From: a virus
Lineage: Duplodnaviria > Heunggongvirae > Uroviricota > Caudoviricetes
IMG/VR virus record: IMGVR_UViG_2563366965_000001
Span: 1-41,751 of that record
Strand: one strand, 5' to 3'
Length of the DNA: 41,751 nucleotides
The position numbers were made by a program, and so were the translations under genes. Of this stretch, positions 1 to 39,151 are shown one piece after another; position 1 is the first letter of the stretch, and the number at the start of each line of letters is the position of its first letter. The notes beneath the pieces were generated by a model. It was not told where the DNA came from. It saw only the letters and a list, made by a program, of their open reading frames with translations, and searched no databases.

Positions 1-573
1 ATGTTTTGCGAAGAAAAAGTAGCTCAAATGGCTGCATACCTACTTCTTAAGAGAGGTGGGCGCATGGCATATCTGAAATTGATGAAGCTGCTCTATCTGT
101 CTAACCGCCAGTCGATTTTGAAGCATGGCAGGATGATCGGCGAAGATAGCCTTTACTCTATGAAATTTGGACCAGTCATGTCGAATACGCTGAACTTGAT
201 TCGCGGTAAGGCTGAAGGCATTGGTGACTACTGGTACAACTTGATAGAGACGAACGGGCATAATGTATCGTTGCGTTCAGATCCGAGGGAAATGGATGCA
301 GACGAGGTCTTTGATGAATTGAGTCGTGCAGATATCCGGATTTTAGATGAAATCTATTCTCGGTATGGGCATATGAACCGATTTGATCTCGCAAATATGA
401 CGCATTTAGAAAGCGTTTGTCCAGAGTGGCACGATCCTGGCAATTCTCGTAAGCCTATAGACCTGAAAGAAATGCTGATCAGTGAGGGTAAAAGCGAGGA
501 TGAGGCTAATCGCATAATTGGCAAAATGGAAGAATCTCAGAAACTTAAGGAATTTTCTTTGCAATTATCATGA
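1..573 (+). CDS. Panacea (DUF4065)-domain protein, antitoxin-like (PanA/SocA/GepA-type); may be 5'-partial because the ORF opens at base 1
   Basis: Translation shows AYLKLMKLLYLSN ... MKFGPVMSN, the KLxKLLY / W-or-F-GPV pattern I associate with DUF4065; stop overlaps the next start (ATGA at 570-573). Confidence 0.55.
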   Translation: MFCEEKVAQMAAYLLLKRGGRMAYLKLMKLLYLSNRQSILKHGRMIGEDSLYSMKFGPVMSNTLNLIRGKAEGIGDYWYNLIETNGHNVSLRSDPREMDADEVFDELSRADIRILDEIYSRYGHMNRFDLANMTHLESVCPEWHDPGNSRKPIDLKEMLISEGKSEDEANRIIGKMEESQKLKEFSLQLS

Positions 574-989
574 CGGATTATCAGCCATACAGGAAAGGAA
601 CTGTGCTTGCACCAACTGGACCATGCAATCATCTTCATGTGATTTGTAATGATCCTGTTTATTACCCCGTTAACGATTGTTATTGTGTTTTAGTTGTTAA
701 TATTTCTAGTATCAAGGATGGTGTCCCCCACGATCCGTCTTGCGTCTTGAATTCTGGTGATCATCGCTTTATCAAGCATCCAAGTTATGTTGTTTACGCT
801 GAAGCTATAATTTGGCGAGTGGATAACATGGTTAGAAAGCAGCGATCGGGTGAGATTTCTGTTCATGATGATATGCCAGAAGCTACATTCAATAGAATTC
901 TGGACGGTTTTGATATCTCTGATGAAGTTACGCCAAAGAACCTTAAATTTAAAAATAAATATTGCGTATCATCTATTGATGATGAGTAA
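570..989 (+). CDS. Small protein translationally coupled to the Panacea gene; putative toxin partner, possibly MazF/PemK/Kid-like fold (tentative)
   Basis: ATGA start/stop overlap with upstream gene; AT-rich; segments CVLVVNISS and SYVVYAEAIIWRVDNMVRK resemble the beta-strand/WR pattern of MazF/Kid toxins by eye only. Confidence 0.35.
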   Translation: MTDYQPYRKGTVLAPTGPCNHLHVICNDPVYYPVNDCYCVLVVNISSIKDGVPHDPSCVLNSGDHRFIKHPSYVVYAEAIIWRVDNMVRKQRSGEISVHDDMPEATFNRILDGFDISDEVTPKNLKFKNKYCVSSIDDE

Positions 990-6850: not shown

Positions 6851-6913
6851 CCAAACGACTTCACAGTTATTGTTTAAAATCTGGACTTTCATTTTGTTCT
6901 TTAACCTCCAGAT
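6851..6913. repeat. Direct repeat B, copy 2 (here the MKVQ reading frame is truncated to 15 codons; the ...SGG-stop belongs to the intact ClpX-ZnF gene)
   Basis: Minus-strand reading gives ATG AAA GTC CAG ATT TTA AAC AAT AAC TGT GAA GTC GTT TGG GCG TAA. Confidence 0.9.
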
Positions 6914-7122
6914 TTCCGCGCATCTAAAGGCGCATTCTCATTTGGTGTGAACTGAATAGTTGTGCTGATATTGATTAATGCCCCGACACACAAGACTACG
7001 CACTCAGAGCAGATAGCAACTTCATCTTTTCCGCCTTTGGCGATGATTTTTTTTGCCTGCAGCTCGTTTGCGCCACAAAACGAGCATGTGAAATAACGGT
7101 TCATTTGCGCTCTCTTACACAT
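6901..7122 (-). CDS. Small protein with a ClpX-type C4 zinc finger (ClpX N-terminal zinc-binding-domain-like)
   Basis: CSFCG...(16 aa)...CSECV spacing mirrors the ClpX N-domain CSFCGK...CDEC; first gene left of the cI operator region. Confidence 0.5.
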   Translation of the reverse strand: MCKRAQMNRYFTCSFCGANELQAKKIIAKGGKDEVAICSECVVLCVGALINISTTIQFTPNENAPLDARKSGG

Positions 7123-7199
7123 AGTATTTAACGAATCATCCGGTCATTCATACGCCACCGGCGGCTACTTCGTGGGCGTCCTGCCTGTTCGTTATCTTT

Positions 7200-7288
7200 G
7201 ATATAAAATCTAACTTAACTTAGTTATTATGGCAAGAGAAAACACCAAACTTTTCTTAGTTCGGTGCCTTAGTTAGAGAAGAGAGGTC
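7200..7288. promoter_or_regulatory. OL/PL-like operator region (leftward early promoter)
   Basis: 14-bp palindrome CTAACTTAACTTAG (7210-7223) matches the CTAAN-N4-CTTAG sites seen between cI and cro; further CTTAG half-sites nearby. Confidence 0.4.
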
Positions 7289-7915
7289 TTAGAGTTCGTA
7301 TTGAACTCCTTTGACTACACCAATGATAAGGCAATTACCATTGATAGGGATGTTGGGATACCGAGGATTTAATGGCACTAAAAACTTTTGAGGGCCATCG
7401 ATGACTAATTTTTTTACTGTAGCTTCGTTTGTTCCATCAAGTCGAGCGATGACTATTTTTCCATGACGAGGTTCTGCATCTGGATCTACAATCACTGTTG
7501 CGCCTTCTGGTATTGTTGGGAGGCCATTAGGGTTAGTCATGGAGTCACCTTTAACCTCTAATGCAAATGAGTTATCACCAATCTTTAATGATGTATCTAC
7601 CCACTTGTCCACTTCACTAAACACTTCTGCTGCCCTGCACTCAGTAAACTGCCCAGCCTGAACCCACGATATTACAGGAACTCTGCGCATGTTTGTGACG
7701 AGTTTGCCTTCAAACTCAGCACCATAAAGAATGTAATCTATTGACGTATTGAAGAACTTCGCTAATTTCGAAAGTGCCTCCCCACCAGGGGTATTGATGT
7801 CTTTCTCCCAGTACCCCACAGCAACGTCGCTTACTCCACAAAATTTACCCAATTCTTTCTGGGACGTTCCGGTAACTCTTCTCAGAGCTTTTATACGCTG
7901 ACCAACCGTTTCCAT
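7289..7915 (-). CDS. cI: CI-type phage repressor (XRE helix-turn-helix + S24 LexA-like autopeptidase)
   Basis: N-terminal HTH (QKELGKFCGVSDVAVGYWE); C-terminal GDSM serine motif and downstream lysine (KIVIARL); divergent from the cro-like gene. Confidence 0.85.
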   Translation of the reverse strand: METVGQRIKALRRVTGTSQKELGKFCGVSDVAVGYWEKDINTPGGEALSKLAKFFNTSIDYILYGAEFEGKLVTNMRRVPVISWVQAGQFTECRAAEVFSEVDKWVDTSLKIGDNSFALEVKGDSMTNPNGLPTIPEGATVIVDPDAEPRHGKIVIARLDGTNEATVKKLVIDGPQKFLVPLNPRYPNIPINGNCLIIGVVKGVQYEL

Positions 7916-8012
7916 AGGAGCACCATTTCTTGAATTGCTAAGTAATCTTAGTTTTTATTGACCAAAGATAGATTTGTAATTAGCATCTAATAAAACTTAG
8001 TTTGGAGGGCGT
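7916..8012. promoter_or_regulatory. OR-like region with divergent PRM/PR promoters and at least two 14-bp operators
   Basis: Operators CTAAGTAATCTTAG (7938-7951) and CTAATAAAACTTAG (7987-8000); TTGACC (7958-7963) followed 17 bp later by TAGCAT as a PR candidate. Confidence 0.55.
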
Positions 8013-8213
8013 ATGACAACTGACGATATCGAAAGCTACTTCGGCAGTATTGAGAAAGTTGCTGCTTTTTTCGGCATAACAACTGAAGCCGTTTATCAGT
8101 GGCGAAACCGTCCGGGCCAGTTAATTCCAAAAGGACGTGCAGCAGAAGCTGCATATAGAACTTGCGGACGGTTGCCATTTAAACCTGAGCTTTATGAAAA
8201 ATCTAATGGATAA
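8013..8213 (+). CDS. cro: Cro-like helix-turn-helix repressor
   Basis: 66 aa, GGAGGG RBS; VAAFFGITTEAVYQW resembles a Cro/YdaS-type HTH; divergent from cI. Confidence 0.7.
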   Translation: MTTDDIESYFGSIEKVAAFFGITTEAVYQWRNRPGQLIPKGRAAEAAYRTCGRLPFKPELYEKSNG

Positions 8214-8802
8214 ATCGATTAACAGAAACCACAGAACGATGAGGCTAACCGTGGGTAAGCATCACTGGAAAGTAGAAAAACAGCCTGAGTGGTACGTGAA
8301 AGCTGTCAGAAAAACTATCGCAGCGTTGCCGGGTGGTTACGCTGAAGCAGCTGACTGGCTGGATGTAACAGAAAACGCATTATTTAACCGCCTTCGTGCC
8401 GATGGCGATCAGATTTTCCCGCTGGGATGGGCAATGATTTTGCAACGTGCTGGTGGAACTCACTTCATTGCTGACGCTGTGGCGCAGTCTGCAAATGGCG
8501 TATTTGTGTCTCTTCCTGACATCGAGGATGTGGACAACGCCGATATCAACCAACGCCTGCTGGAGGTCATTGAACAGATCGGCAGTTATTCAAAACAGAT
8601 TCGTTCAGCAATTGAAGACGGTGTAGTGGAACCGCATGAGAAGACAGCAATTAACGATGAGCTGTACCTCTCAATTTCGAAGCTGCAGGAGCATGCAGCA
8701 CTGGTCTACAAAATCTTTTGCGTTTCAGAAAGTAGTGACGCCCGCGAGTGTGCAGCTCCGGGCGCCGTGGCGTGTCGTGACTGTGGAGAAACTAACGCAT
8801 GA
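8194..8802 (+). CDS. CII-like regulatory protein (Phage_CP76 / YdaT-like, tentative); start codon uncertain (8194, 8206 or 8239)
   Basis: Position directly after cro; HTH-like segment [19 protein letters not shown]; stop overlaps the next ATG. Confidence 0.4.
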
Positions 8803-9137
8803 ACAGTTTAACAACACACTACCGTCGCTCGCAACTGATTGCGCTTCCTGTACCGGGTGGAAAAGCGAAGGTGGAGTATTGCTATGCAGTAAATGTACCA
8901 GGTGACAGGGTAATTGTAACCCACAGCTTTGCAGAGTGGGCTGTGGGTGATTTCAACCGGCAAAAGGAGACAGTCCTTTGCGACAAGTTAACCGCTGGTT
9001 CAAAGATCACTACGGAGTGCCCGTCAGAGTCATTCGTTGGGAGCCGGAAACACAACGGGTTATCTACCTCCGCGAAGGCTATGAGTATGAGTGCTTCAGC
9101 CCGCTCGAACAGTTTCGTCGTAAATTCAGGGAAATAG
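8799..9137 (+). CDS. Hypothetical protein with ambiguous reading frame (see finding on 8799-9157)
   Basis: Frame-0 ORF has a plausible N-terminal half but a serine-rich low-complexity tail; an overlapping frame with an AAGGAG RBS and TTG start (8978-9157) encodes a more protein-like sequence. Confidence 0.3.
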
Positions 9138-9146
9138 AGGTCGGTC

Positions 9147-10088
9147 ATGAGCACTAAATTAACCGGCTATGTATGGGATGGTTGCGCAGCGTCAGGCATG
9201 AAATTATCCAGCGTGGCAATTATGGCCCGCCTGGCTGATTTCAGTAATGACGAAGGTGTGTGCTGGCCATCAATTGAAACCATTGCCCGCCAGATTGGCG
9301 CGGGGATGAGTACCGTCAGAACGGCTATCGCACGGCTGGAAGCAGAAGGCTGGTTAACGCGTAAGGCGCGTCGCCAGGGTAACCGCAATGCGTCGAATGT
9401 TTATCAGCTTAACGTTGCGAAGCTTCAGGCAGCGGCATTTTCTCAACTGTCAGATTCTGACCCGTCAAAATCTGACGCATCAAAATCTGACCCGTCAAAA
9501 TTTGATGCGTCGAAATCTGGCAAAAAAGCGGGTTTTCACCCGTCAGAATCTGGCGGGGATCCGTCAGTAAAATCAAAACATGATCCGTCAGATAAAAAAC
9601 CTTCTCGTCCGGACGCTTCGCAACCGGACACGCAGACGGATGAACAGGATTTTTTAACTCGCCATCCTGATGCGGTTGTATTCAGCCCTAAAAAGCGCCA
9701 GTGGGGAACGCAGGATGATTTGACCTGCGCACAGTGGCTCTGGAAAAAAATCATCGCCCTGTACGAGCAGGCTGCCGAATGTGACGGCGAGGTGGTTCGT
9801 CCCAAAGAACCGAACTGGACAGCCTGGGCAAACGAAATTCGCCTGATGTGTGTGCAGGATGGTCGTACTCACAAACAAATCTGCGAGATGTACAGCCGCG
9901 TCAGCCGCGATCCGTTCTGGTGCCGTAACGTGCTCAGCCCGTCGAAGCTGCGGGAAAAATGGGATGAGCTTTCCCTGCGCTTATCGCCGTCCGTCAGCAC
10001 ATACACAGAAAAACGTGAAGATCCGTACTTCAAATCCAGTTACGACAACGTGGACTACAGCCAGATCCCGGCAGGATTCAGGGGGTGA
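9147..10088 (+). CDS. Replication initiator (O-like; N-terminal winged-helix replication-initiator domain, repeat-rich linker, C-terminal domain)
   Basis: N-terminus VAIMARLADFSNDEGVCWPSIETIARQIGAGMSTVRTAIARLEAEGWL is typical of phage/plasmid replication HTH domains; 15-bp iterons embedded in the linker coding region. Confidence 0.6.
   Translation: MSTKLTGYVWDGCAASGMKLSSVAIMARLADFSNDEGVCWPSIETIARQIGAGMSTVRTAIARLEAEGWLTRKARRQGNRNASNVYQLNVAKLQAAAFSQLSDSDPSKSDASKSDPSKFDASKSGKKAGFHPSESGGDPSVKSKHDPSDKKPSRPDASQPDTQTDEQDFLTRHPDAVVFSPKKRQWGTQDDLTCAQWLWKKIIALYEQAAECDGEVVRPKEPNWTAWANEIRLMCVQDGRTHKQICEMYSRVSRDPFWCRNVLSPSKLREKWDELSLRLSPSVSTYTEKREDPYFKSSYDNVDYSQIPAGFRG
9456..9515. repeat. Four tandem 15-bp iterons (TCTGACCCGTCAAAA-like) inside the initiator gene, followed by an A-rich stretch to about 9600; candidate origin of replication
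   Basis: Units at 9456, 9471, 9486 and 9501; the second and fourth are near reverse complements of each other; analogous to ori-lambda inside gene O. Confidence 0.5.
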
Positions 10089-10090
10089 TC

Positions 10091-10579
10091 ATGAGTCTTT
10101 TGAATGAAGTTCAGAAATTCATTGAAGCCCATCCGGGGTGTACTTCCGGAGACATTGCGGATGCTTTTGCAGGTTACTCACGGCAGCGCGTTCTGCAGTC
10201 AGCAAGCAAGTTACGTCAGAGTGGGCGTGTGGCTCACCGTTGTGAAGGAGATACACGCAGACATTTCTCGCGCCTGACTGAGAGAGCGCAGGAGCCGGAA
10301 CCACAACCAGTTTGTGAAACCAGACCTGTGCGCAAGTTCTATGTCGGCACTAACGCCCCCCGGGTGATTTTGTGCCTGACCCGCCAGGCTGAAGAACTGG
10401 AGTCGAGGGGCTTATACCGTCGTGCTGCAACGGTGTGGATGGAGGCATTCCGTGAAAGCCACTCCCAGCCAGAACGAAACAATTTTCTGGCGCGTCGTGA
10501 GCGGTGTTTACGGAAAAGCAGCAAGCGCGCTGCATCGGGTGAAGAGTGGTATCTGTCAGGGAATTACGTGGGGGCTTAA
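10091..10579 (+). CDS. PerC-family-like transcriptional regulator (Pch/ANR-type)
   Basis: C-terminal AEELESRGLYRRAATVWMEAF...RRERCLRK matches the PerC signature (LE.KGLWRRAA..W) as I recall it; ATG at 10091 with GGGGG RBS. Confidence 0.55.
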   Translation: MSLLNEVQKFIEAHPGCTSGDIADAFAGYSRQRVLQSASKLRQSGRVAHRCEGDTRRHFSRLTERAQEPEPQPVCETRPVRKFYVGTNAPRVILCLTRQAEELESRGLYRRAATVWMEAFRESHSQPERNNFLARRERCLRKSSKRAASGEEWYLSGNYVGA

Positions 10580-10905
10580 TGACTACGTTAACTCAATGCC
10601 AGCAGCAAGTGCTGGATATGCTGATTTCTTATCAGAAAGAACGTGGCTTCCCGCCAACCAATCAGGAGGTAGCAACCATGCTGGGATACCGTTCGGTGAA
10701 TGCAGCGGTGGAGCATCTTCGCGCACTGGAGAAAAAAGGCGTCATCACGATAAAGCGTGGCGTGGCCCGGGGGATAACGCTTCATACCGCGGTGAAGGAC
10801 GACGACAGCGAGGCGGTCGGGATTATCCGCGCACTGCTTGCCGGTGAGGAAAACGCAAGGCTGCGTGCAACCCACTGGTTACATGAGAGGGACCTGAAAG
10901 TATGA
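10579..10905 (+). CDS. LexA N-terminal DNA-binding-domain-only protein (no S24 peptidase domain)
   Basis: QQQVLDMLISYQKERGFPPTNQEVATMLGYRSVNAAVEHLRALEKKGVI aligns by eye with the LexA winged-helix domain; only 108 aa. Confidence 0.6.
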   Translation: MTTLTQCQQQVLDMLISYQKERGFPPTNQEVATMLGYRSVNAAVEHLRALEKKGVITIKRGVARGITLHTAVKDDDSEAVGIIRALLAGEENARLRATHWLHERDLKV

Positions 10906-11291
10906 AGCTGATCCTGCCTTTTCCGCCCAGCGTGAACACGTACTGGCGACACCCCAACAAAGGGGCGTTTGCTGGTAAGAGCCTGATAAGCGCGGCGGGG
11001 CGAAAATTCCAGAGCGCGGCGTGCGCAGCAATAGTTGAGCAGTTACGTCGTCTGCCGAAACCAACGTCGGCACCTGCTTCAGTGGAGATCGTGTTGTTTC
11101 CTCCGGATAACCGGATCCGCGATCTGGACAACTATAACAAGGCGCTGTTTGACGCCCTGACCCACGCGGGTGTGTGGGAAGACGACAGTCAGGTGAAAAG
11201 AATGCTGGTGGAGTGGGGACCGGTTATCCCGGAAGGGAAGGTCGAGATCACTATCAGTAAGTACGAGAAAACGGCGGGTGCAGCTGCCTGA
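10902..11291 (+). CDS. rusA: Holliday-junction resolvase RusA
   Basis: LPFPPSVNTYWRH...RDLDNYNKALFDALTHAGVWEDDSQV is the RusA motif set with catalytic aspartates. Confidence 0.85.
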   Translation: MKLILPFPPSVNTYWRHPNKGAFAGKSLISAAGRKFQSAACAAIVEQLRRLPKPTSAPASVEIVLFPPDNRIRDLDNYNKALFDALTHAGVWEDDSQVKRMLVEWGPVIPEGKVEITISKYEKTAGAAA

Positions 11292-11310
11292 TTAAGAGGA
11301 GAAACGAAGT

Positions 11311-12120
11311 ATGAATAATCTGATGGTCATTGATGGTATTGAAGTTCGTCGTGATGCTTATGGGCGTTACAGCCTGAACGATCTGCATCGCGCAGCAGTA
11401 GCATCTGGTGCAAATGCCAGAACCAAGGAGCCGGGAAAGTTTCTTTCCAGCCAACAAACTGTTGAGCTTGTTCATGAATTGACCAACACCCAGAATTTGG
11501 GTGTTGACCCGGTGAGTGTGATTCATGGGGGAAATGAACGGGGAACGTATGTCTGCAAGGAACTGGTGTATGCCTATGCAATGTGGATCAGCCCGTCATT
11601 CCATCTGAAGGTGATCCGTACTTTCGATATGGTAACCAGCGCACCGGAAAAATTATCCGGACAGGCTGCTGACAAGATGCAGGCTGGCGTGATCCTGCTG
11701 GACTTTATGCGCCGGGAGTTAAACCTGTCTAACTCTTCAGTGCTTGGTGCCTGTCAGAAACTCCAGGAGGCTGTTGGCTTACCGAATCTGGCACCGCGCT
11801 ATGCCATTGATGCTCCTGCTGATGCACACGATGGCTCAAGTCGCCCGACACTGTCACTGAGTGCACTGCTGAAACAGTATGGTATACGCCTGACGGCTAA
11901 TCAGGCATATCACCAGATGGTGAAACTGGGGATCGTCGAGCAGCGCGAACGATACAGCCGTACCGCGATTAACAACATCAAAAAATTCTGGTCGCTGACG
12001 GCGAAAGGCTGCATGTTCGGCAAGAACATCACCAGTCCTGCAAATCCGCGCGAGACGCAGCCGCATTTCTTCGAATCCCGATTCCCTGAGCTGTTAAAGC
12101 TGCTCGATACCGTTCATTGA
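11311..12120 (+). CDS. KilA-N domain protein (antirepressor-like)
   Basis: N-terminal RYSLNDLHRAA... KilA-N-type motif; strong AAGAGGAG RBS. Confidence 0.6.
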   Translation: MNNLMVIDGIEVRRDAYGRYSLNDLHRAAVASGANARTKEPGKFLSSQQTVELVHELTNTQNLGVDPVSVIHGGNERGTYVCKELVYAYAMWISPSFHLKVIRTFDMVTSAPEKLSGQAADKMQAGVILLDFMRRELNLSNSSVLGACQKLQEAVGLPNLAPRYAIDAPADAHDGSSRPTLSLSALLKQYGIRLTANQAYHQMVKLGIVEQRERYSRTAINNIKKFWSLTAKGCMFGKNITSPANPRETQPHFFESRFPELLKLLDTVH

Positions 12121-12121
12121 G

Positions 12122-13117
12122 GTGACCGTGAGAGCACTACTGACCCCTGAAATTGCCCCGCGTATGGGGATCGTATTGTTCAGACCAGGTTCAGAGCTGA
12201 TGCCCCTGTTTATGCAGGGGCGTGTCCTGCTGGAGCCTGAGCCGGAACGTTATTCATCTTTCGCCAGTGGTGCCGTTCCGGCGGCATCACAACCGCTGGC
12301 GGATGATCCTGCCGTTCAGGCCGTGTTCCGCAATGAGGCAGTGATCCGTCGTGCTGGTGGCGTGGAATGTCTTGAAAGCTGGTTACTTCGTGAAAAAGGC
12401 TGCCAGTGGCCTCATTCCGACTGGCACAGCGAGAACATGACCACAATGCGACACGCTCCGGGCGCAATCCGTCTGTGCTGGCACTGCGATAACCAGCTGC
12501 GCGATCAGTTCACGGAACGGCTGGAATCAATGGCAACGGATAACTGTGCCCGCTGGGTGTTGTCTGTTGTGCGTCGGGATCTCGGTTTTGATGACAGTCA
12601 CGTTGTGACAATGCCGGAACTGTGCTGGTGGCTGATTCGTAATGATCTGGCGGATACCTTACCGGAAAGTGCAGCCCGTAAGGCACTGAGATTACCGAAG
12701 CCTGTTGTGCCGTCTGTTACCCGGGAAAGTGACCTTGTGCCTTCGGTTCCTGCCACCAGCATCATCCAGGATAAGGCGAAAAAGGTGCTGGCGCTGAAAG
12801 TGGAGCCGGAGTCGCCGGAGTCTTTTATGTTACGCCCAAAACGTCGCCGCTGGGTTAATGAAAAGTACACGCGCTGGGTTAAGACACAGCCGTGTGCATG
12901 TTGTGGAAAGCCTGCTGATGATCCCCACCACTTGATAGGCCACGGTCAGGGTGGGATGGGTACAAAAGCGCATGACCTCTTTGTGTTGCCTTTGTGCAGA
13001 AAGCATCACGACGAGCTGCATGCGGATACCGTGGCATTTGAAGAGAAGTATGGCTCCCAACTGGAGCTGATATTTCGTTTTATCGATCGTGCGCTGGCAA
13101 TAGGCGTACTGGCGTAA
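12122..13117 (+). CDS. DUF968-domain protein (YdfU-like), C-terminal HNH-like Cys/His cluster
   Basis: C-terminus CACCGKPADDPHHLIGHGQGGMGTKAHD...PLCRKHHDELH; GTG start overlapping the upstream stop. Confidence 0.55.
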   Translation: MTVRALLTPEIAPRMGIVLFRPGSELMPLFMQGRVLLEPEPERYSSFASGAVPAASQPLADDPAVQAVFRNEAVIRRAGGVECLESWLLREKGCQWPHSDWHSENMTTMRHAPGAIRLCWHCDNQLRDQFTERLESMATDNCARWVLSVVRRDLGFDDSHVVTMPELCWWLIRNDLADTLPESAARKALRLPKPVVPSVTRESDLVPSVPATSIIQDKAKKVLALKVEPESPESFMLRPKRRRWVNEKYTRWVKTQPCACCGKPADDPHHLIGHGQGGMGTKAHDLFVLPLCRKHHDELHADTVAFEEKYGSQLELIFRFIDRALAIGVLA

Positions 13118-13130
13118 GTGGAGAACGAGC

Positions 13131-13883
13131 ATGAACCTTGAAGCCTTACCGAAATATTACTCCCCAAAATCTCCAAAATTGAGCGATGACGCACCGGCGA
13201 CAGGCTCTGGTGGTTTAACGATTACGGATGTGATGGCTGCGCAGGGGATGGTGCAGTCGAAAGCACCACTGGGTTTTGCCTTATTCCTGGCAAAAGTTGG
13301 TGTTCAGGATCCTCAGTTTGCGATTGAAGGTCTGCTCAATTACGCGATGGCACTGGATAACCCGACATTGAACAAATTGAGTGAAGAAACCCGGTTACAG
13401 ATCATCCCTTACCTTGTGAATTTTGCCTTTGCTGATTATTCCAGGTCTGCGGCAAGTAAGGCTCGCTGTGAGCATTGTGCTGGTACTGGATTTCATAATG
13501 TATTGCGCGAAGTGGTGAAACACTCCAGAAGCGGGGAATCTGTTATCAAGGAAGAGTGGGTGAAGGAACTATGTCAGCATTGTCATGGTAAGGGAGAAGT
13601 CAGCACAGCGTGCAGAGGGTGTAAGGGTAAAGGTATTGTCCTGGATGAAAAAAGGACCCGGCTTCATGGCACGCCTGTTTATAAGATTTGTGGGCGTTGC
13701 AATGGAAACCGGTTTAGCCGTTTACCAACCACACTGGCGCGGCATCATGTCCAGAAGCTGGTACCAGACCTGACGGATTATCAGTGGTACAAAGGATATG
13801 CAGATGTCATTGATAAACTGGTTACAAAGTGCTGGCAGGAAGAAGCATATGCAGAGATACAATTGAGAAAGGTGACAAGATAA
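13131..13883 (+). CDS. Late-gene antiterminator Q-like protein (QuuQ-type, four CxxCxGxG zinc knuckles)
   Basis: 250 aa; CEHCAGTG, CQHCHGKG, CRGCKGKG, CGRCNGNR motifs; sits immediately upstream of a promoter plus terminator unit and the lysis genes. Confidence 0.55.
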   Translation: MNLEALPKYYSPKSPKLSDDAPATGSGGLTITDVMAAQGMVQSKAPLGFALFLAKVGVQDPQFAIEGLLNYAMALDNPTLNKLSEETRLQIIPYLVNFAFADYSRSAASKARCEHCAGTGFHNVLREVVKHSRSGESVIKEEWVKELCQHCHGKGEVSTACRGCKGKGIVLDEKRTRLHGTPVYKICGRCNGNRFSRLPTTLARHHVQKLVPDLTDYQWYKGYADVIDKLVTKCWQEEAYAEIQLRKVTR

Positions 13884-13914
13884 ATGGTTTTCGCCGAAGA
13901 TGACGACATGATGC

Positions 13915-13943
13915 TTGCATTTTTCAAAAAATATGGATAAGAT
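13915..13943 (+). promoter_or_regulatory. PR'-like late promoter (TTGCAT-N17-TAAGAT)
   Basis: Sequence read directly; located 30 bp downstream of the Q-like gene, as in lambda. Confidence 0.45.
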
Positions 13944-13991
13944 TTTCCCAACGATGGGCTTTGTATGTCTACCGTTGATAAGATTTAGGAA

Positions 13992-14016
13992 CCCGCCACT
14001 GAGCGGGTTTTTTGTA
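13992..14016 (+). terminator. tR'-like intrinsic terminator (target of Q antitermination)
   Basis: CCCGC-CACTGA-GCGGG stem followed by TTTTTT, about 50 nt downstream of the PR'-like -10. Confidence 0.5.
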
Positions 14017-14135
14017 CCTGTAAACTTGGTGCAGTACAGTAAACACGCTGGTGGTCGTGAATACTGACTTTTTATCTTGCTGGATTTTTAGACAAGAGTT
14101 ATTGGTATGTCATGTTAACCAGAAGGGAAAAAGAC

Positions 14136-14339
14136 ATGCTAAAACAGCAAGATATGACAGAAACCGCCGCCGCAGTCCTTCATTTCTTACCTGCTGACAA
14201 GTGGGTAACGCCACGCATGATGACGAGAACTACCGGAGTAAGCGAAGCCCGGTGCCAGTTAATACTGACTCAGTTAGTTCTGGCGGGTCTGGCGAAGGAT
14301 AACGGCGGGTACGGGAATAAATTCAGACGCTGCCAGTAA
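14136..14339 (+). CDS. Hypothetical small protein (67 aa)
   Basis: GAAGGG RBS before the ATG at 14136; first ORF of the late transcript. Confidence 0.35.
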   Translation: MLKQQDMTETAAAVLHFLPADKWVTPRMMTRTTGVSEARCQLILTQLVLAGLAKDNGGYGNKFRRCQ

Positions 14340-14489
14340 TGGCGGTTTCCTGCTGTGAAAATGGGCGGCTGGTGGGTGTTGGTAGCACCTGCCAGCCATT
14401 CGCTCATGCTTACTGGTCACAAGCGAACCACGGCCCACTGCTTTAGCGCAAAAGCAGAGTGAGCCTACCAGAGTTACGCTTACTGATCC

Positions 14490-15542
14490 ATGAAAAATAC
14501 TGTAAAAATAAACAGTGTTGATTTAATCAACGCTGATTGCCTGCATTTTATTCAGTCCCTGCCTGATGATTCCATTGACCTGATTGTTACCGATCCGCCT
14601 TACTTCAAGGTGAAACCTAACGGTTGGGACAATCAGTGGAAAGGGGATGAAGATTACCTTAAGTGGCTGGACCACTGTCTGGCCCAGTTCTGGCGGGTGT
14701 TGAAACCTGCCGGAAGCCTTTACCTGTTCTGTGGGCATCGCCTAGCATCTGATATTGAGATCATGATGCGTGAACGTTTCAACGTGCTTAACCATATCAT
14801 CTGGGCGAAGCCGTCCGGACGTTGGAATGGGTGTAATAAAGAAAGTCTGCGCGCATATTTTCCTGCCACAGAGCGCGTTCTGTTTGCTGAACATTACCAG
14901 GGGCCATATCGCGGCAAAAGTGACGGCTATGCGGCAAAAGAAAGGGAACTCAAACAGCACATAATGGCACCGCTGATATCGTATTTCAGGGATGCTCGTG
15001 CCGAACTGGGTATAACGGCAAAACAAATTGCCGAAGCCACAGGTAAGAAAAATATGGTTTCCCACTGGTTTGGTGCCAGTCAGTGGCAGTTGCCGAATGA
15101 GGCTGACTATCGGAAGTTACAGGCACTGTTTTCCCGTATAGCGGCAGAGAAGTTTCAGGAACAACAACTGGAACAACCACACCACCAGCTGGTGGCATCT
15201 TATGATTCACTGAATCGCAAATATTCTGAATTGCTGGATGAGTTTAAATCTCTCCGGCGCTATTTCTCCGTATCAGTCTCCGTGCCTTATACCGATGTCT
15301 GGACGCATAAGCCCGTTCAGTTCTACCCGGGTAAACATCCGTGCGAGAAACCGGCGGATATGCTCCGGCAAATAATCAATGCCAGTAGTCGACCTGGTGA
15401 TCTGGTTGCTGATTTCTTTATGGGATCCGGTTCCACAATAAAAGCAGCAATGGCGCTGGGGCGTCGGGCGTTAGGTGTTGAACTTGAGTCAGAGCGGTTT
15501 AATCAGACGGTGAAAGAGGTAAGTGAACTGGTGGGGAAATAA
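14490..15542 (+). CDS. Orphan DNA methyltransferase (beta-class, DPPY motif IV before FxGSGS motif I; N6-adenine likely)
   Basis: DLIVTDPPY near the N-terminus and DFFMGSGSTIKAA near the C-terminus; no adjacent restriction endonuclease. Confidence 0.8.
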   Translation: MKNTVKINSVDLINADCLHFIQSLPDDSIDLIVTDPPYFKVKPNGWDNQWKGDEDYLKWLDHCLAQFWRVLKPAGSLYLFCGHRLASDIEIMMRERFNVLNHIIWAKPSGRWNGCNKESLRAYFPATERVLFAEHYQGPYRGKSDGYAAKERELKQHIMAPLISYFRDARAELGITAKQIAEATGKKNMVSHWFGASQWQLPNEADYRKLQALFSRIAAEKFQEQQLEQPHHQLVASYDSLNRKYSELLDEFKSLRRYFSVSVSVPYTDVWTHKPVQFYPGKHPCEKPADMLRQIINASSRPGDLVADFFMGSGSTIKAAMALGRRALGVELESERFNQTVKEVSELVGK

Positions 15543-15618
15543 TTCTGGTGGCCACGTTGCGTGGCCTTTTTATTTCCAACACAGCACCCGCAAATATCGC
15601 GAGGTGAGAGATGACGAA

Positions 15619-35676: not shown

Positions 35677-36117
35677 ATGCAGAAATATATTTTCAGTGCC
35701 GATAAAAATGCGTTTTTCCCTGTGGAGCTTAAAATCGCTTATCAGGAATCCGGCGAATGGCCCGGTGATGGAATCGAAATTGACGACACTGTTGCCGCCG
35801 AATTTATGAAGGAAGCACCAGAAGGAAAATACAGAGGCGTCATCGACGGAATGCCTGCATGGATTGATATTCCACCGCCAACTCATGAGGAACAAATTGC
35901 CGCAGCCGAACTGGAAAAGCAGCAATTGATTAATCAGGTCAACGAATACATAAACAGTAAGCAATGGCCTGGTAAAGCGGCGATTGGTCGCCTGAAAGGT
36001 GAGGAACTGGCGCAATATAATTTGTGGCTGGATTATCTGGACACACTGGAACTGGTCGATACTTCCGGTGCGCCAGATATTGAATGGCCTACGCCTCCGG
36101 CAGTTCAGGCCAGATGA
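35677..36117 (+). CDS. Tail fibre assembly protein (Tfa), current orientation
   Basis: 146 aa, N-terminal MQKYIFSADKNAFFP typical of Tfa; follows the fibre gene. Confidence 0.65.
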   Translation: MQKYIFSADKNAFFPVELKIAYQESGEWPGDGIEIDDTVAAEFMKEAPEGKYRGVIDGMPAWIDIPPPTHEEQIAAAELEKQQLINQVNEYINSKQWPGKAAIGRLKGEELAQYNLWLDYLDTLELVDTSGAPDIEWPTPPAVQAR

Positions 36118-36682
36118 CATCCGGCGCGGTGCTGGTATCTGTTACCGTCACCGCGTCAATGTAATCCAGCACGGCGTTAAGTCGGGTTGTTTCTGCCTGC
36201 GTCAGCTTCCGTCCGGCCTGTAATTTCAGTTGAATCAGACTGATGGAAGCCATTGCAGCATCAATCAGCGACTGGCGCTGTGCTTCTGCCGCGTCTACTG
36301 CGGCACTATGCTGTGCCTCAGTATCTGTCACCCATTTCTCACCATCCCATTTATCGTATGGCGTTAACGGTGAAAGCGTGACATAACCGTCTTTGATGGC
36401 ACCGATATAATCCACTGTAACAGCTGCGCCATTTTCGATTGAGTAAACAGTCTCATTGCGGTGGTCTTCTTCATGGCTCCATCCCTTACCCGTAAATACT
36501 GCCACTTTCCCCGGAATGTATTCGCCCGGGTCAATACCAGTGGAACAGGCGGGCATACTTACGCCAGTATTAATATATTCATCAGACCAGCCCGTATATT
36601 CAGACGTTACTGCATCATAATAAAAACAACGCATATCACCCGGCACTGTAGCCAGCCCATTTTCATCAAAAACAGGTTTCAT
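36089..36682 (-). CDS. Alternative tail fibre assembly protein (Tfa'), used after inversion
   Basis: 197 aa, Tfa-like N-terminus (MKPVFDENGLATVPGDMRCFYYDA); convergent with tfa. Confidence 0.65.
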   Translation of the reverse strand: MKPVFDENGLATVPGDMRCFYYDAVTSEYTGWSDEYINTGVSMPACSTGIDPGEYIPGKVAVFTGKGWSHEEDHRNETVYSIENGAAVTVDYIGAIKDGYVTLSPLTPYDKWDGEKWVTDTEAQHSAAVDAAEAQRQSLIDAAMASISLIQLKLQAGRKLTQAETTRLNAVLDYIDAVTVTDTSTAPDVIWPELPEA

Positions 36683-37157
36683 TATGCAGCCCTCACAATA
36701 TAATTAAAGGCGATGTTACGTGGACGGTTTTCATTAGCTGTTGGCACGACACGAGAGGCGTCGAATCCAAGGTCATCGGTTTTGTCTATAGTAGTTGTGT
36801 TATTCGGCATTCTCGCTGATCGTGTTCCTGCATCGTAAAAAGCCCCTCTGATTGCATCAAAAGACATACCGATCCCGCCATCTGCGAATCCCTCAATATT
36901 TCTTATTGCATCCCCCTGTGAAGATAATAATTGTCGCCCGGCATCCACTCCACGTCCGTCATCCCAGCCACGAATAAATTCACCGCGTAAATCAGGCAAT
37001 TTATTTGTCGGATAAACCTTTGCCAGTTCCGGGTATTCTTCAGCAGAAAAAGCCGCACCATTGCATTTTAGCCAGCCTGTTGGCGGAGTGGCGGAAGGCC
37101 ACGGGACAGGCACACCAACGGGTAATGCCGAACCTTCTCCCAAACCAACGTTTATGA
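36682..37157 (-). other. Alternative tail-fibre variable C-terminal segment (no start of its own; expressed only when inverted and fused to the constant N-terminus)
   Basis: Reading frame through the crossover site gives INVGLGEGS, in-frame with [10 protein letters not shown] at the left site; typical fibre-tip motifs (GWLKCNGAAFSAEEYPELAKVYP). Confidence 0.55.
37134..37157. promoter_or_regulatory. Invertase crossover site, right
   Basis: CTTCTCCCAAACCAACGTTTATGA, resembling hix/gix (TTCTTGAAAACCAAGGTTTTTGATAA). Confidence 0.6.
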
Positions 37158-37214
37158 AAATGCAGAAATAGCGCGCAAATGGCATCATTCCTGTTTTTGT
37201 CAGGAGGAGCTATC

Positions 37215-37771
37215 ATGCTTATTGGCTATGTTCGCGTATCAACAAATGACCAGAACACCGATCTACAACGTAATGCGTTGAACTGTGCAGGATGCGAGCT
37301 GATTTTTGAAGACAAGATAAGCGGTACAAAGTCCGACAGACCAGGACTGAAAAAGCTGCTCAGGACATTATCGGCAGGTGACACGCTGGTGGTCTGGAAA
37401 CTGGACCGACTGGGGCGCAGTATGCGGCATCTTGTCGTGCTGGTGGAAGAGTTGCGCGAACGTGGCGTTAATTTTCGCAGCCTGACGGATGCTATTGATA
37501 CCAGCACACCAATGGGGCGCTTTTTCTTTCATGTGATGGGTGCCCTGGCTGAAATGGAGCGAGAGTTTATTGTCGAACGTACTAGGGCGGCTTTGCCGCA
37601 GCACGACAAGAAGGGAGGAACGGTGGGCGAAAGCCAAAGCTGACAGTAGAACAATGGGGGCAGGCTGGCAGGTTGATTGAATCGGGAATATATCAGCAGC
37701 AAGTCGCACTGATTTATGATCTGGGTATTTCAACGGTGTATAAAAAATTCCCTGTAGCAAGTAAACCATAG
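37215..37771 (+). pseudogene. Serine DNA invertase (Pin/Gin/Hin/Cin family) interrupted by a 1-nt deletion-type frameshift near 37586-37591
   Basis: Catalytic domain (MLIGYVRVSTNDQ...) is in frame 0 to ...ERTRA; the C-terminal HTH domain (GRNGGRKPKLTVEQWGQAGRLIESGIYQQQVALIYDLGISTVYKKFP) is open only in the -1 frame and ends at TAG 37769-37771. Confidence 0.6.
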
Positions 37772-37797: not shown

Positions 37798-38493
37798 TTA
37801 TGCACTATTTTTAGGTCTTGTAACCCGAGGTGGGAGTTGTTTGGTTATATGTTCAAGTGATTTTTTGCCCAAGATAGTTCTTTGGACAAAACTTTCTATA
37901 GCTTCTAGCATTTGTTCGAACTCACTTTTATTCGGGCTCCAACTGCGATGTGCGGCGGCGTTTCCTGCATCAATTACTGAAGATATAACGCATGCCTCAG
38001 TGTCGCCTATGACTCCATCTTGTTTTAATTTTTCAACTTTTTCACCAAGTGGCAAACCGGGGTGAATTTGTAACAGTTCAGCAGTTCGATCAAAAATCGT
38101 CCGTAAACCGATGGACGAAAGAATGAAATGGTCAGAAGTATATGAAGAATACATTTCATTAAATATTTGAAAGAGCTGACGATCAACTGATTCAAGCTTG
38201 GATAACCATATCGGAGCTTGAAATGTTTCAGCGGCAGGATAGGTAGTGATCATATCTATAGGCGTTTCTACAAATTCACCATCACGATATTCGTGGGTAG
38301 TATGCTCACTGAAGTGTTCGTTGTGGTGATAGAAGACAGTATCACAGCCATTGCATTGGAGTAGGTGATGGTAATGGTACCCATAAACTGGATATTGGGA
38401 ATCCTCCCAGCTAGTGGTTAGCTTCCCATGCACAGTGCAGTTACGTAACCCACCGCATGTAGGGCAAAGAGCCTTGAGTATTTCCTTTTTCAT
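37798..38493 (-). CDS. Zinc-ribbon + DUF4145-like protein (231 aa), function unknown; candidate accessory/defence gene
   Basis: N-terminal CPTCGG ... CNGCDT cysteine pairs; C-terminal LRTIFDRTAELL...GEKVEKLKQDGVIGDTEACVISSVIDAGNAAAHR resembles the DUF4145 pattern from memory; AT-rich; solo gene between invertase and dinI. Confidence 0.5.
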   Translation of the reverse strand: MKKEILKALCPTCGGLRNCTVHGKLTTSWEDSQYPVYGYHYHHLLQCNGCDTVFYHHNEHFSEHTTHEYRDGEFVETPIDMITTYPAAETFQAPIWLSKLESVDRQLFQIFNEMYSSYTSDHFILSSIGLRTIFDRTAELLQIHPGLPLGEKVEKLKQDGVIGDTEACVISSVIDAGNAAAHRSWSPNKSEFEQMLEAIESFVQRTILGKKSLEHITKQLPPRVTRPKNSA

Positions 38494-38841: not shown

Positions 38842-39090
38842 TTAGTGAACAAACCACTCGTCAGCAGATTCCCAGGTATCTTTCAGAGTCTCCTGAACAA
38901 AAGTTTTTGCAGAATCCTTATCTGCGGTGCGTGTAACAGAAAGGCCATCATTGCTGGTGGCTTTTACTAACACCTCAACATCGTCATAACGCTTACTGAT
39001 GCGTCGGGTTAATTCTTCCTTTAACGCATCCACAGCACCGGTTGGCATTTTAGTCATTTTTTCTTTGGCTATGCAGATTTCAATACGCAT
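38842..39090 (-). CDS. dinI: DinI-like DNA-damage-inducible protein
   Basis: [11 protein letters not shown]...[11 protein letters not shown] ... [15 protein letters not shown] closely parallels E. coli DinI; GGAGGG RBS; two LexA boxes upstream. Confidence 0.8.
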
Positions 39091-39103: not shown

Positions 39104-39123
39104 TACTGTGTTTGTATACAGCA
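39104..39123. promoter_or_regulatory. LexA box 1 (TACTGTGTTTGTATACAGCA), 14 bp upstream of the dinI start
   Basis: CTGT-N8-ACAG with flanking TA/CA, close to the SOS-box consensus. Confidence 0.65.
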
Positions 39124-39131
39124 TTATTTTT

Positions 39132-39151
39132 AACTGTATGGATAAACAGTG
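39132..39151. promoter_or_regulatory. LexA box 2 (AACTGTATGGATAAACAGTG)
   Basis: CTGT-N8-ACAG; ends at the integrase stop codon. Confidence 0.55.

Follow-up and report, generated by a model that had tools for sequence, protein, structure and literature searches.

A LexA DNA-Binding Domain Protein without the Protease Domain and Its PerC-Like Neighbour in the Early-Right Region of a Lambdoid Prophage

Introduction

Two adjoining prophage genes, yfdN and lexN, are the subject of this report. They lie in the IMG/VR virus record IMGVR_UViG_2563366965_000001, whose full 41,751 nucleotides (nt) are referred to here as the window. The main finding concerns the second gene. LexN is a 108-amino acid (aa) protein that descends from the N-terminal domain of enterobacterial LexA, and the RecA-responsive protease/dimerisation domain has been replaced by a two-helix tail. 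In five divergent lineages, longer forms of this protein are encoded in small operons behind promoters overlapped by a canonical LexA box. Comparison of these loci makes it very likely that the LexN family is part of a damage-response circuit. The first gene encodes YfdN, in which a winged helix is joined to a PerC domain, and its adjacency to lexN looks incidental when related loci are compared.

Neither gene is new, and both are already annotated and very common. RefSeq names yfdN as 'PerC family transcriptional regulator' (WP_077633800.1) and lexN as 'LexA family protein' (WP_000210155.1), and the labels in phage records are 'PerC transcriptional activator family protein' and 'LexA DNA binding domain protein'. 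The 815-nt region that holds both genes is present in 2675 of 5426 complete E. coli genomes and also in 50 phage records, including SfII, SfIV, mEp460 and phages that convert their hosts to production of Shiga toxin (Stx) of the Stx2 or Stx2c type. The LexN family is found in E. coli, Shigella, Citrobacter, Salmonella, Kosakonia, Cronobacter, Atlantibacter, Enterobacter, Klebsiella, and Hafnia. Where the synonymous rate (dS) is unsaturated, the ratio of nonsynonymous to synonymous change (dN/dS) is about 0.2 for both genes, which indicates purifying selection. A literature search found no paper testing the function of either protein. As it stands, the pair consists of ordinary prophage genes. 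The gains made here are the correction of the pair to a non-unit, the domain anatomy of both proteins, and a truncated-LexA family that comparison ties to LexA-box promoters, dinI, and recA.

LexN, a LexA-Type Winged Helix without the Protease Domain

LexN, encoded at 10579-10905 on the + strand, matches the Pfam family LexA_DNA_bind (PF01726) over aa 1-65 with 69 bits against a cut-off of 23.7. The same Pfam search gives no Peptidase_S24 match in LexN, and the protein ends at residue 108. In LexA, the C-terminal domain is an S24 serine protease and dimerisation domain with a Ser119/Lys156 catalytic dyad. The TIGR00498 lexA model scores LexN at 70.6, where 110.95 is required, and the match covers no more than positions 1-91 of its 203. 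The whole protein is described by PHROG 362 ('transcriptional repressor'), which covers aa 1-108 with positions 1-106 of its 106 (3.8e-59), tail included, and which is also matched by the longer LexN proteins of Klebsiella and Enterobacter. A phmmer search of LexN against the PDB finds E. coli LexA (E 6e-16). In a Foldseek comparison, the AlphaFold (AF2) model of LexN, with a mean predicted local distance difference test (pLDDT) score of 77.6, fits the N-terminal domain of LexA in 3jso, a LexA-DNA complex, with a root-mean-square deviation of 1.3 A over 68 residues at 50% identity. The sequence-only reading had described the second protein as resembling a LexA winged helix without the autoprotease domain, and the profile searches and the fold bear this out.

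By the AF2 model and the Pfam match, the LexA-type winged helix occupies aa 1-68 (10579-10782, + strand). The C-terminal tail (aa 76-103, 10804-10887, + strand) consists of two helices, aa 76-87 and 93-103, modelled with pLDDT of about 85. It is conserved down to about 40% identity in the pattern EA..(I/L)R.L(L/M)A....AR..A...L, in which A97 and L101 are invariant. The residues 'AGE' at aa 88-90 align to the Ala84-Gly85 cleavage site of LexA. They were considered as a retained cleavage site and rejected, because they become ANE or VGE in close relatives and are absent in distant ones. A LexA-like protein mentioned in a paper on mEp phages was also set aside, as the mention concerns the S24 domain of cI.

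Residues S39, N41, A42, E44, and E45 of E. coli LexA are those given for DNA binding in the part of PMC13416735 that cites Knegtel 1995. LexN of the window has the winged-helix fold of E. coli LexA (1lea, 3jso), retains four of these five residues (S39, N41, A42, E45) together with the RGI of the wing, and keeps 10 of the 14 residues of the recognition helix. It differs from E. coli LexA in having V in place of E44, a 40-residue two-helix tail in place of the C-terminal domain, and a phage-encoded location in a nin-like region. In the nine LexN lineages compared, residues S39 and N41 do not vary and E is never found at position 44; six lineages have E or D at position 45, one has G, and two have I or L. 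With this degree of retention, binding of LexN to an SOS box (CTGT-N8-ACAG) is plausible.

LexA Boxes in the Window

The window holds three canonical LexA boxes (CTGT-N8-ACAG), where 0.46-0.48 are expected, and three are reached in 5 of 200 shuffles. Among the CTGT/ACAG spacings in the window, N8 alone is enriched, so the spacings give no pointer to a different LexN operator. Box scores given here come from a LexA matrix built from E. coli sites. The sequence-only reading had reported two SOS boxes at 39104-39151, and these are real. Both are exact matches, at 39104-39123 (21.9 bits) and 39132-39151 (21.7 bits), and they stand just upstream of a DinI-family gene on the - strand (38842-39090; 82 aa, Pfam DinI 71 bits) that adjoins the integrase gene. 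One box overlaps the perfect TTGACA -35 hexamer of the DinI-family promoter and the other lies over the start region. Both boxes are candidate sites for host LexA, and LexN might bind them too.

The third box, TACTGTAAAAATAAACAGTG (14498-14517, 22.6 bits), overlaps codons 3-9 of a late-region N6/N4 DNA-methylase gene (14490-15542) and is a candidate LexA or LexN site. It is present in 11 related viral loci and in a Salmonella locus (L102), and in a Kosakonia locus (L083) both arms are kept and the spacer is changed. About 150 nt of non-coding sequence 5' of this box (window 14340-14517) is near-identical in E. coli, Salmonella L102, and Kosakonia L083. A long hairpin is predicted within it (z = -2.6), and it has no Rfam match.

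Long-Form LexN Operons behind LexA-Box Promoters

The stronger pointer to a damage-response function comes from relatives with longer LexN proteins. In five divergent lineages a long-form LexN (118-135 aa) is encoded in a small operon, and a canonical LexA box overlaps a sigma-70-like promoter, the promoters having been read by eye from the sequence. In Klebsiella (L097/L098; L097:4385-5593) a box of 27.0 bits precedes genes for DinI, an open reading frame (ORF) of PHROG 1813, and LexN. In Salmonella (L102:4561-5357) a box of 26.6 bits is followed by a PHROG 1813 ORF, LexN, and RusA, and in Enterobacter (L104:4560-5608) a box of 20.5 bits is followed by a PHROG 1813 ORF and LexN. The two remaining lineages are metagenomic. 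One (L106:340-2428) has a box of 25.6 bits, a phage RecA, a 77-aa ORF, and LexN, and the other (L107:4564-5608) has a box of 24.4 bits, a 99-aa ORF, and LexN; both of these small ORFs are placed by alignment with the PHROG 1813 ORFs and not by profile. The repeated control of LexN by LexA, once together with dinI and once together with recA, is the reason for regarding the family as very likely part of a damage-response circuit. A LexA-box promoter in front of LexN also mirrors the autoregulation of lexA. LexN of the window has no LexA box of its own, unlike these long-form operons.

Two further small ORFs accompany the long-form genes. A conserved ORF of 75-99 aa, belonging to PHROG 1813 where profiled, is always found 5' of long-form LexN, and a GTG start was called for it in four of the five loci. 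An ORF of 66-67 aa, belonging to PHROG 1212 in the one case profiled, is usually found 3' of it.

The LexA-controlled dinI-antirepressor-irsA operon of the Gifsy prophages (PMC3121763) is a positional analogue of the long-form operons, lying between the replication genes and Q. The layout of the long-form loci is Gifsy-like, with a terminator (in L102 and L106), a LexA-box promoter, dinI (in Klebsiella only), a small ORF, and a further gene. The likeness is one of position. STM2620 of Gifsy-1, taken as irsA by its position, is a DUF1367 protein without similarity to LexN, and the idea that LexN is the irsA of such an operon was rejected. Similarly, a BLAST comparison of the PHROG 1813 ORF with the Gifsy-1 ORF at the gfoA position (STM2621.1n) showed no similarity that would mark it as a GfoA-type antirepressor.

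Proposed Role of LexN

Our tentative proposal, held at a little short of even confidence, is that LexN is a LexA-type DNA binder that is insensitive to RecA, belongs to the SOS circuit, and restores repression at LexA-box promoters. The isolated N-terminal domain of LexA retains weak operator binding and dimerises on DNA, and ClpXP clears the natural cleavage fragment of LexA by way of the VAA newly exposed at its C terminus. The last residues of LexN are LKV, and it presumably carries no such signal for ClpXP. Because it has neither the catalytic domain nor a conserved Ala-Gly cleavage site, LexN should not be open to inactivation by activated RecA. In the proposed mechanism, LexN of the window phage would be made from the rightward promoter pR once the cI repressor is lost. 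Long-form LexN would be expressed from a LexA-repressed promoter of its own, giving a negative feedback like that of lexA. The two-helix tail is proposed as a new dimerisation element. LexN would then bind LexA-box-like palindromes with CTGT-type half-sites and, when host LexA is cleaved, would re-establish repression at phage and host SOS-box promoters. It would act in this way as a substitute for LexA that does not respond to SOS induction and that dampens the damage response or sets its timing.

Several observations weigh against this proposal, and they overlap with the case for an alternative in which LexN has diverged from LexA, has an operator of its own, and serves as a phage-specific activator or repressor that does not act on SOS boxes. 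The precedent is gp6 of phage GIL01, a LexA-domain-only protein whose site is GaCACAnnTGTGaC and which switches on late transcription from P3, a promoter that host LexA represses (PMC6182141). A truncated LexA can thus acquire both a new site and an activator role. E44 is absent from each of the nine LexN lineages compared, and residue 45 may be E, D, G, I, or L. This residue is hydrophobic in Klebsiella (L) and Salmonella L102 (I), and the operons of both still bear canonical LexA boxes. Therefore, recognition by LexN may differ from that by LexA, and since the dimerisation domain of LexA is absent, the spacing of half-sites could differ too. No binding data for any LexN family member were found in the literature searched, and the matrix scan found no LexA box near pR, pL, or Q in the window. 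The apparent control of LexN expression by LexA in five lineages would suit the alternative as well, as gp6, expressed from P1, is made early once LexA control is lifted (PMC6182141). On the other side stand the retained recognition-helix and contact residues of the window protein, the lack of enrichment of any other CTGT/ACAG spacing in the window, and the fact that no conserved alternative palindrome was found. The late genes, furthermore, are already served by the Q antiterminator. The likeness to gp6, the only characterised analogue of LexN that the literature search found, is also limited. The two share the PF01726 domain but give no BLASTP alignment, which led us to reject direct homology, and gp6, from a Bacillus tectivirus, is a 66-aa protein without a C-terminal tail that comes from a Firmicute LexA, binds a palindrome other than that of LexA, and activates a late promoter from a site near -43 (PMC6182141). 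They appear to be independent truncations of LexA. An operator and role private to the phage is accordingly an alternative that we take seriously but consider somewhat unlikely.

The proposal that LexN restores repression at LexA boxes has a more far-reaching form, in which LexN is a LexA substitute, encoded by prophages far and wide and resistant to RecA, that re-occupies SOS boxes of phage and host and so shuts down or times the SOS response. In this general form it is possible but doubtful. If it holds, many lysogens of E. coli, Shigella, Klebsiella, and Salmonella would carry a LexA surrogate that is insensitive to damage, and the duration of the SOS response, the induction of co-resident prophages (including Shiga-toxin phages), and SOS mutagenesis after antibiotics could all change. 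Cross-induction of LexA-controlled prophages could be influenced too. An effect on SOS mutagenesis and prophage induction could matter because about half of the complete E. coli genomes and many Stx2 and Stx2c phages carry the gene.

YfdN Combines a Winged Helix with a PerC Domain

The gene 5' of lexN (10091-10579, + strand), read from its ATG at 10091, encodes 162 aa; RefSeq starts it at a GTG at 10085, giving 164 aa. The sequence-only reading placed it in the PerC family from a motif, AEELESRGLYRRAATVW, which sits at aa 100-116. The profile search confirms the assignment, with Pfam PerC (PF06069) matching aa 98-149 at 37.7 bits, above the curated threshold of 22.6. YfdN also matches PHROG 1324 (4.7e-77). 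The NCBIfam model ANR_neg_reg stays under its threshold (25 against 32), sequence matches to MarR and BilQ are weak, and a search of PDB sequences with YfdN gave no match. RefSeq calls the window gene yfdN, and it belongs to the same gene family as YfdN of the E. coli K-12 prophage CPS-53.

The AF2 model of YfdN (mean pLDDT 77.7) consists of a winged helix at aa 3-60 (pLDDT 82-91), a disordered linker at aa 63-84, a three-helix PerC domain at aa 90-147 (pLDDT about 90), and a C-terminal hairpin that carries the motif YLSGNYVG. This motif is kept in PerC-like proteins of E. coli, Citrobacter, Cronobacter, and Atlantibacter. The N-terminal domain has weak fold matches to winged helices of the ArsR, SmtB, MarR, and BlaI types, at about 2 A over 60 residues. 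With its 162 aa, additional winged helix, and disordered linker, YfdN is not the small single-domain protein typified by PerC, PchA-C, and PchE. The PerC-like version of Cronobacter, in contrast, has 78 aa and is PerC-only.

Comparison was made with PchE of E. coli O157 Sakai, a 90-aa PerC-only protein that is 42% identical to YfdN over a stretch limited to 52 residues. The two have in common the motif AEELE.(K/R)G.YRRAA, but YfdN has in addition the N-terminal winged helix and the C-terminal YLxGNYVG motif, and pchE is located on the small element Sp7 whereas yfdN lies in a lambdoid early-right operon. Orthology of YfdN and PchE was rejected, since PchE is a 90-aa PerC-only protein in Sp7. 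Pch proteins relieve silencing by H-NS at LEE1 (PMC4764244), LEE being the locus of enterocyte effacement. By analogy with them, YfdN probably affects transcription or silencing of the H-NS type, and its winged helix would choose the sites.

The Two Genes Belong to Different Modules

The sequence-only reading had presented yfdN and lexN as consecutive, translationally coupled genes, and the sequence agrees: the stop codon of yfdN (TAA, 10577-10579) overlaps the start codon of lexN (ATG, 10579-10581) in a TAATG at 10577-10581 on the + strand. The lexN stop in turn overlaps the start of rusA, a gene recognised by its Pfam match, in an ATGA at 10902-10905 (+ strand). The view of the pair as a notable unit did not survive comparison with relatives. 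In a set of 80 IMG/VR loci whose LexN is at least 98% identical to that of the window, a dam gene lies between yfdN and lexN in 58, no dam is present there in 20, and two loci are cut off. In phage vB_EcoS-569R4 (L002:3680-4333), the 654-bp dam gene stands exactly at the yfdN/lexN junction. Diverged relatives, with LexN 42-66% identical, place other genes in the same slot. It is occupied by a 607-aa ORF in Kosakonia (L084:3156-4979), read as a C5/Dam fusion without profiling, by a 392-aa Dam in Cronobacter (L099:3826-5004), by Dam plus a C5 methylase in Salmonella (L101:2403-5004), and by a D12-class methylase in Atlantibacter (L103:4167-4991) and in L105, and it is empty in Citrobacter. The slot is in this sense a hot spot at which unrelated DNA methylases are exchanged, namely Dam (PF05869), D12 (PF02086), C5 (PF00145), and apparent fusions. 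The two genes abut in the window because the usual methylase cassette is missing in this variant.

The neighbours on the two sides of the slot differ. An O-like replication gene stands directly 5' of the PerC-like gene in the window and in L084, L086, L099/L100, L101, L103, and L105. At the LexN loci of Klebsiella (L097), Salmonella (L102), Enterobacter (L104), and the metagenomic L106 and L107, no PerC-family match is recorded; the replication module there is of the DnaA/IstB type in L102 and of the lambda-P type in L104 and L107, and Klebsiella L097 has none on that side. LexN, on the other hand, is followed directly by RusA in 8 of 11 divergent lineages, and in two more with a 67-aa ORF between them. 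The LexN-RusA order was seen in loci of Kosakonia, Citrobacter, Cronobacter, Salmonella, Atlantibacter, and Enterobacter. The genes after LexN in Klebsiella and L106 are a small ORF and a DUF968 gene, and then Q or a Q-like gene. On this comparative evidence the PerC-like gene belongs to the replication-gene module, and LexN travels with downstream RusA and/or DUF968, followed by Q. From the methylase slot and the separate neighbours it follows that the pair is the last gene of one module joined to the first gene of another. The adjacency thus looks incidental, with no sign that the proteins act together.

How do these data bear on what YfdN might do? That YfdN and LexN form a functional pair, as a complex or as an activator/repressor couple, is very unlikely. 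The TAATG overlap in the window and the presence of both genes within the same block in E. coli, Citrobacter, Kosakonia, Cronobacter, Atlantibacter, and Salmonella prophages would fit such a pair, but a methylase separates the genes in most close loci and in most other genera, five lineages have LexN without a recorded PerC-family match, and the PerC-like gene co-varies instead with the HTH_36 replication gene. For K-12, moreover, yfdN is described as the sole family member, the 'K12 unique PerC homologue', and it served in that study only as a deleted background control (PMC5931665). The same study bears on the idea that YfdN activates virulence genes at LEE/ler as PerC and PchA/B/C do. Pfam PerC membership, the shared AExLExxGxYRRAA motif, and the carriage of the cassette by Stx2 and Stx2c phages speak for it. 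However, ler is activated by PchA/B/C only, and barely by PchD and PchE (PMC5931665, PMC6265319), with PchD having no effect and PchE a less than 2-fold one (PMC5931665). The activators form group 1, the one group for which LEE1/ler activation through relief of H-NS silencing has been demonstrated (PMC4764244, PMC5931665), and are encoded by pchA/B/C genes of 315 bp (PMC5931665), whereas YfdN is a longer protein with an added winged helix, and yfdN occurs in non-pathogenic K-12 (PMC5931665) and in roughly half of the complete genomes of E. coli. The link to virulence activators that the sequence-only reading had drawn is therefore weak; because the architecture differs and only PchA/B/C activate ler, a virulence role for a yfdN-type protein is unsupported, and we consider it extremely improbable. 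A minority alternative to a role in transcription or anti-silencing, unlikely though less so than the previous two, is that YfdN is an accessory of the phage replication module, encoded at the helicase-loader position and working with the HTH_36 initiator, and not a transcription factor. The PerC-like gene is always directly 3' of the HTH_36/Phg_2220_C gene and is missing where a lambda-P or DnaC-type loader occurs. No helicase-loader gene was found in the window between the O-like gene and Q, and YfdN has a weak PHROG match to a Ren-like exclusion protein (E 0.0077). In lambda, ren follows P. The basis of this alternative is wholly one of synteny, PerC domains are elsewhere associated with transcription and H-NS (PMC4764244), and the Cronobacter version is a PerC-only protein.

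Prophage Context and Other Observations

The window is an SfII/mEp460-type lambdoid prophage integrated at dusA, and both genes lie in its early-right (nin-like) region. The 815-nt region is 100% identical to NZ_CM173849.1 (E. coli 1332KP), where the prophage is flanked by a dusA remnant and an intact dusA, with host lexA and zur a few kb leftward. The S24-type repressor gene cI is on the - strand (7289-7915). A pR-like promoter, TTGACC-17-TAGCAT, was found by consensus scan between cI and cro (7958-7986, + strand) and is followed on the + strand by tightly packed genes for cro, a CII-like protein, DUF4222, the O-like protein, yfdN, lexN, rusA, kilA-N, DUF968, and Q. The O-like gene (9147-10088, + strand), which matches Pfam HTH_36, is directly 5' of the PerC-like gene, and Q (13131-13883, + strand) is the antiterminator for the late genes. 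The description of the region as an early-right operon, made in the sequence-only reading, is fair because of this gene order from cI to Q. By analogy with lambda, the pR-like promoter is the presumed source of the transcript that bears yfdN and lexN. A PADLOC search for a place of the two genes in a defence system gave nothing meaningful, and this idea was dropped. An Rfam scan of 7000-15600 gave a single match, a spurious mir-5880 far under the gathering score, and this match stems from a low-complexity repeat, DPSKSDASKSDPSKFDASKS, in the O-like replication protein (window 9440-9560). Shortly after cI in the early-left direction, a gene at 6901-7104 (- strand) encodes a 67-aa protein made up of a ClpX-type C4 zinc finger.

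LexA boxes were also seen in related loci at sites where the window has none. A near-perfect box, TACTGTTTTTAyATACAGTA (up to 27 bits), lies within the linker-coding part of a cI allele that differs from that of the window. Fourteen E. coli viral loci have it, as do loci of Citrobacter and Cronobacter (L086:1865-1884; L099:1190-1209; L003:444-463), and the E. coli-type allele has an in-frame GTG with a GAGGA Shine-Dalgarno-like sequence after the box. Speculatively, this arrangement might allow the SOS-induced synthesis of a truncated repressor that consists of the C-terminal domain only. Downstream of rusA, 10 related loci (L031:4765-4784) have a 150-nt spacer with the LexA box TACTGTATTTATGAACAGTG 5' of a variant KilA-N gene, while the KilA-N gene of the window starts 20 nt after rusA, without a LexA box (compare 11291-11311). 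The box suggests that the variant KilA-N gene is SOS-controlled, and its product may be antirepressor-like.

Three other regions of the window deserve mention. A serine invertase gene (36089-37643; Resolvase domain, 142-154 aa) adjoins opposed tail-fibre and tail-fibre-assembly-like ORFs. The invertase appears truncated, since no C-terminal DNA-binding domain was detected, and the arrangement resembles an invertible region of the Mu G-segment type that is now perhaps fixed. Between the invertase and the dinI-like gene, a 231-aa ORF (37798-38493, - strand) has an N-terminal Cys-rich motif and a DUF4145 domain and may be a moron. Just inside the dusA remnant, window 1-989 encodes a Panacea-domain protein (RefSeq) followed by a 128-aa ORF without a Pfam match, and these two may be a pair of the toxin-antitoxin type.

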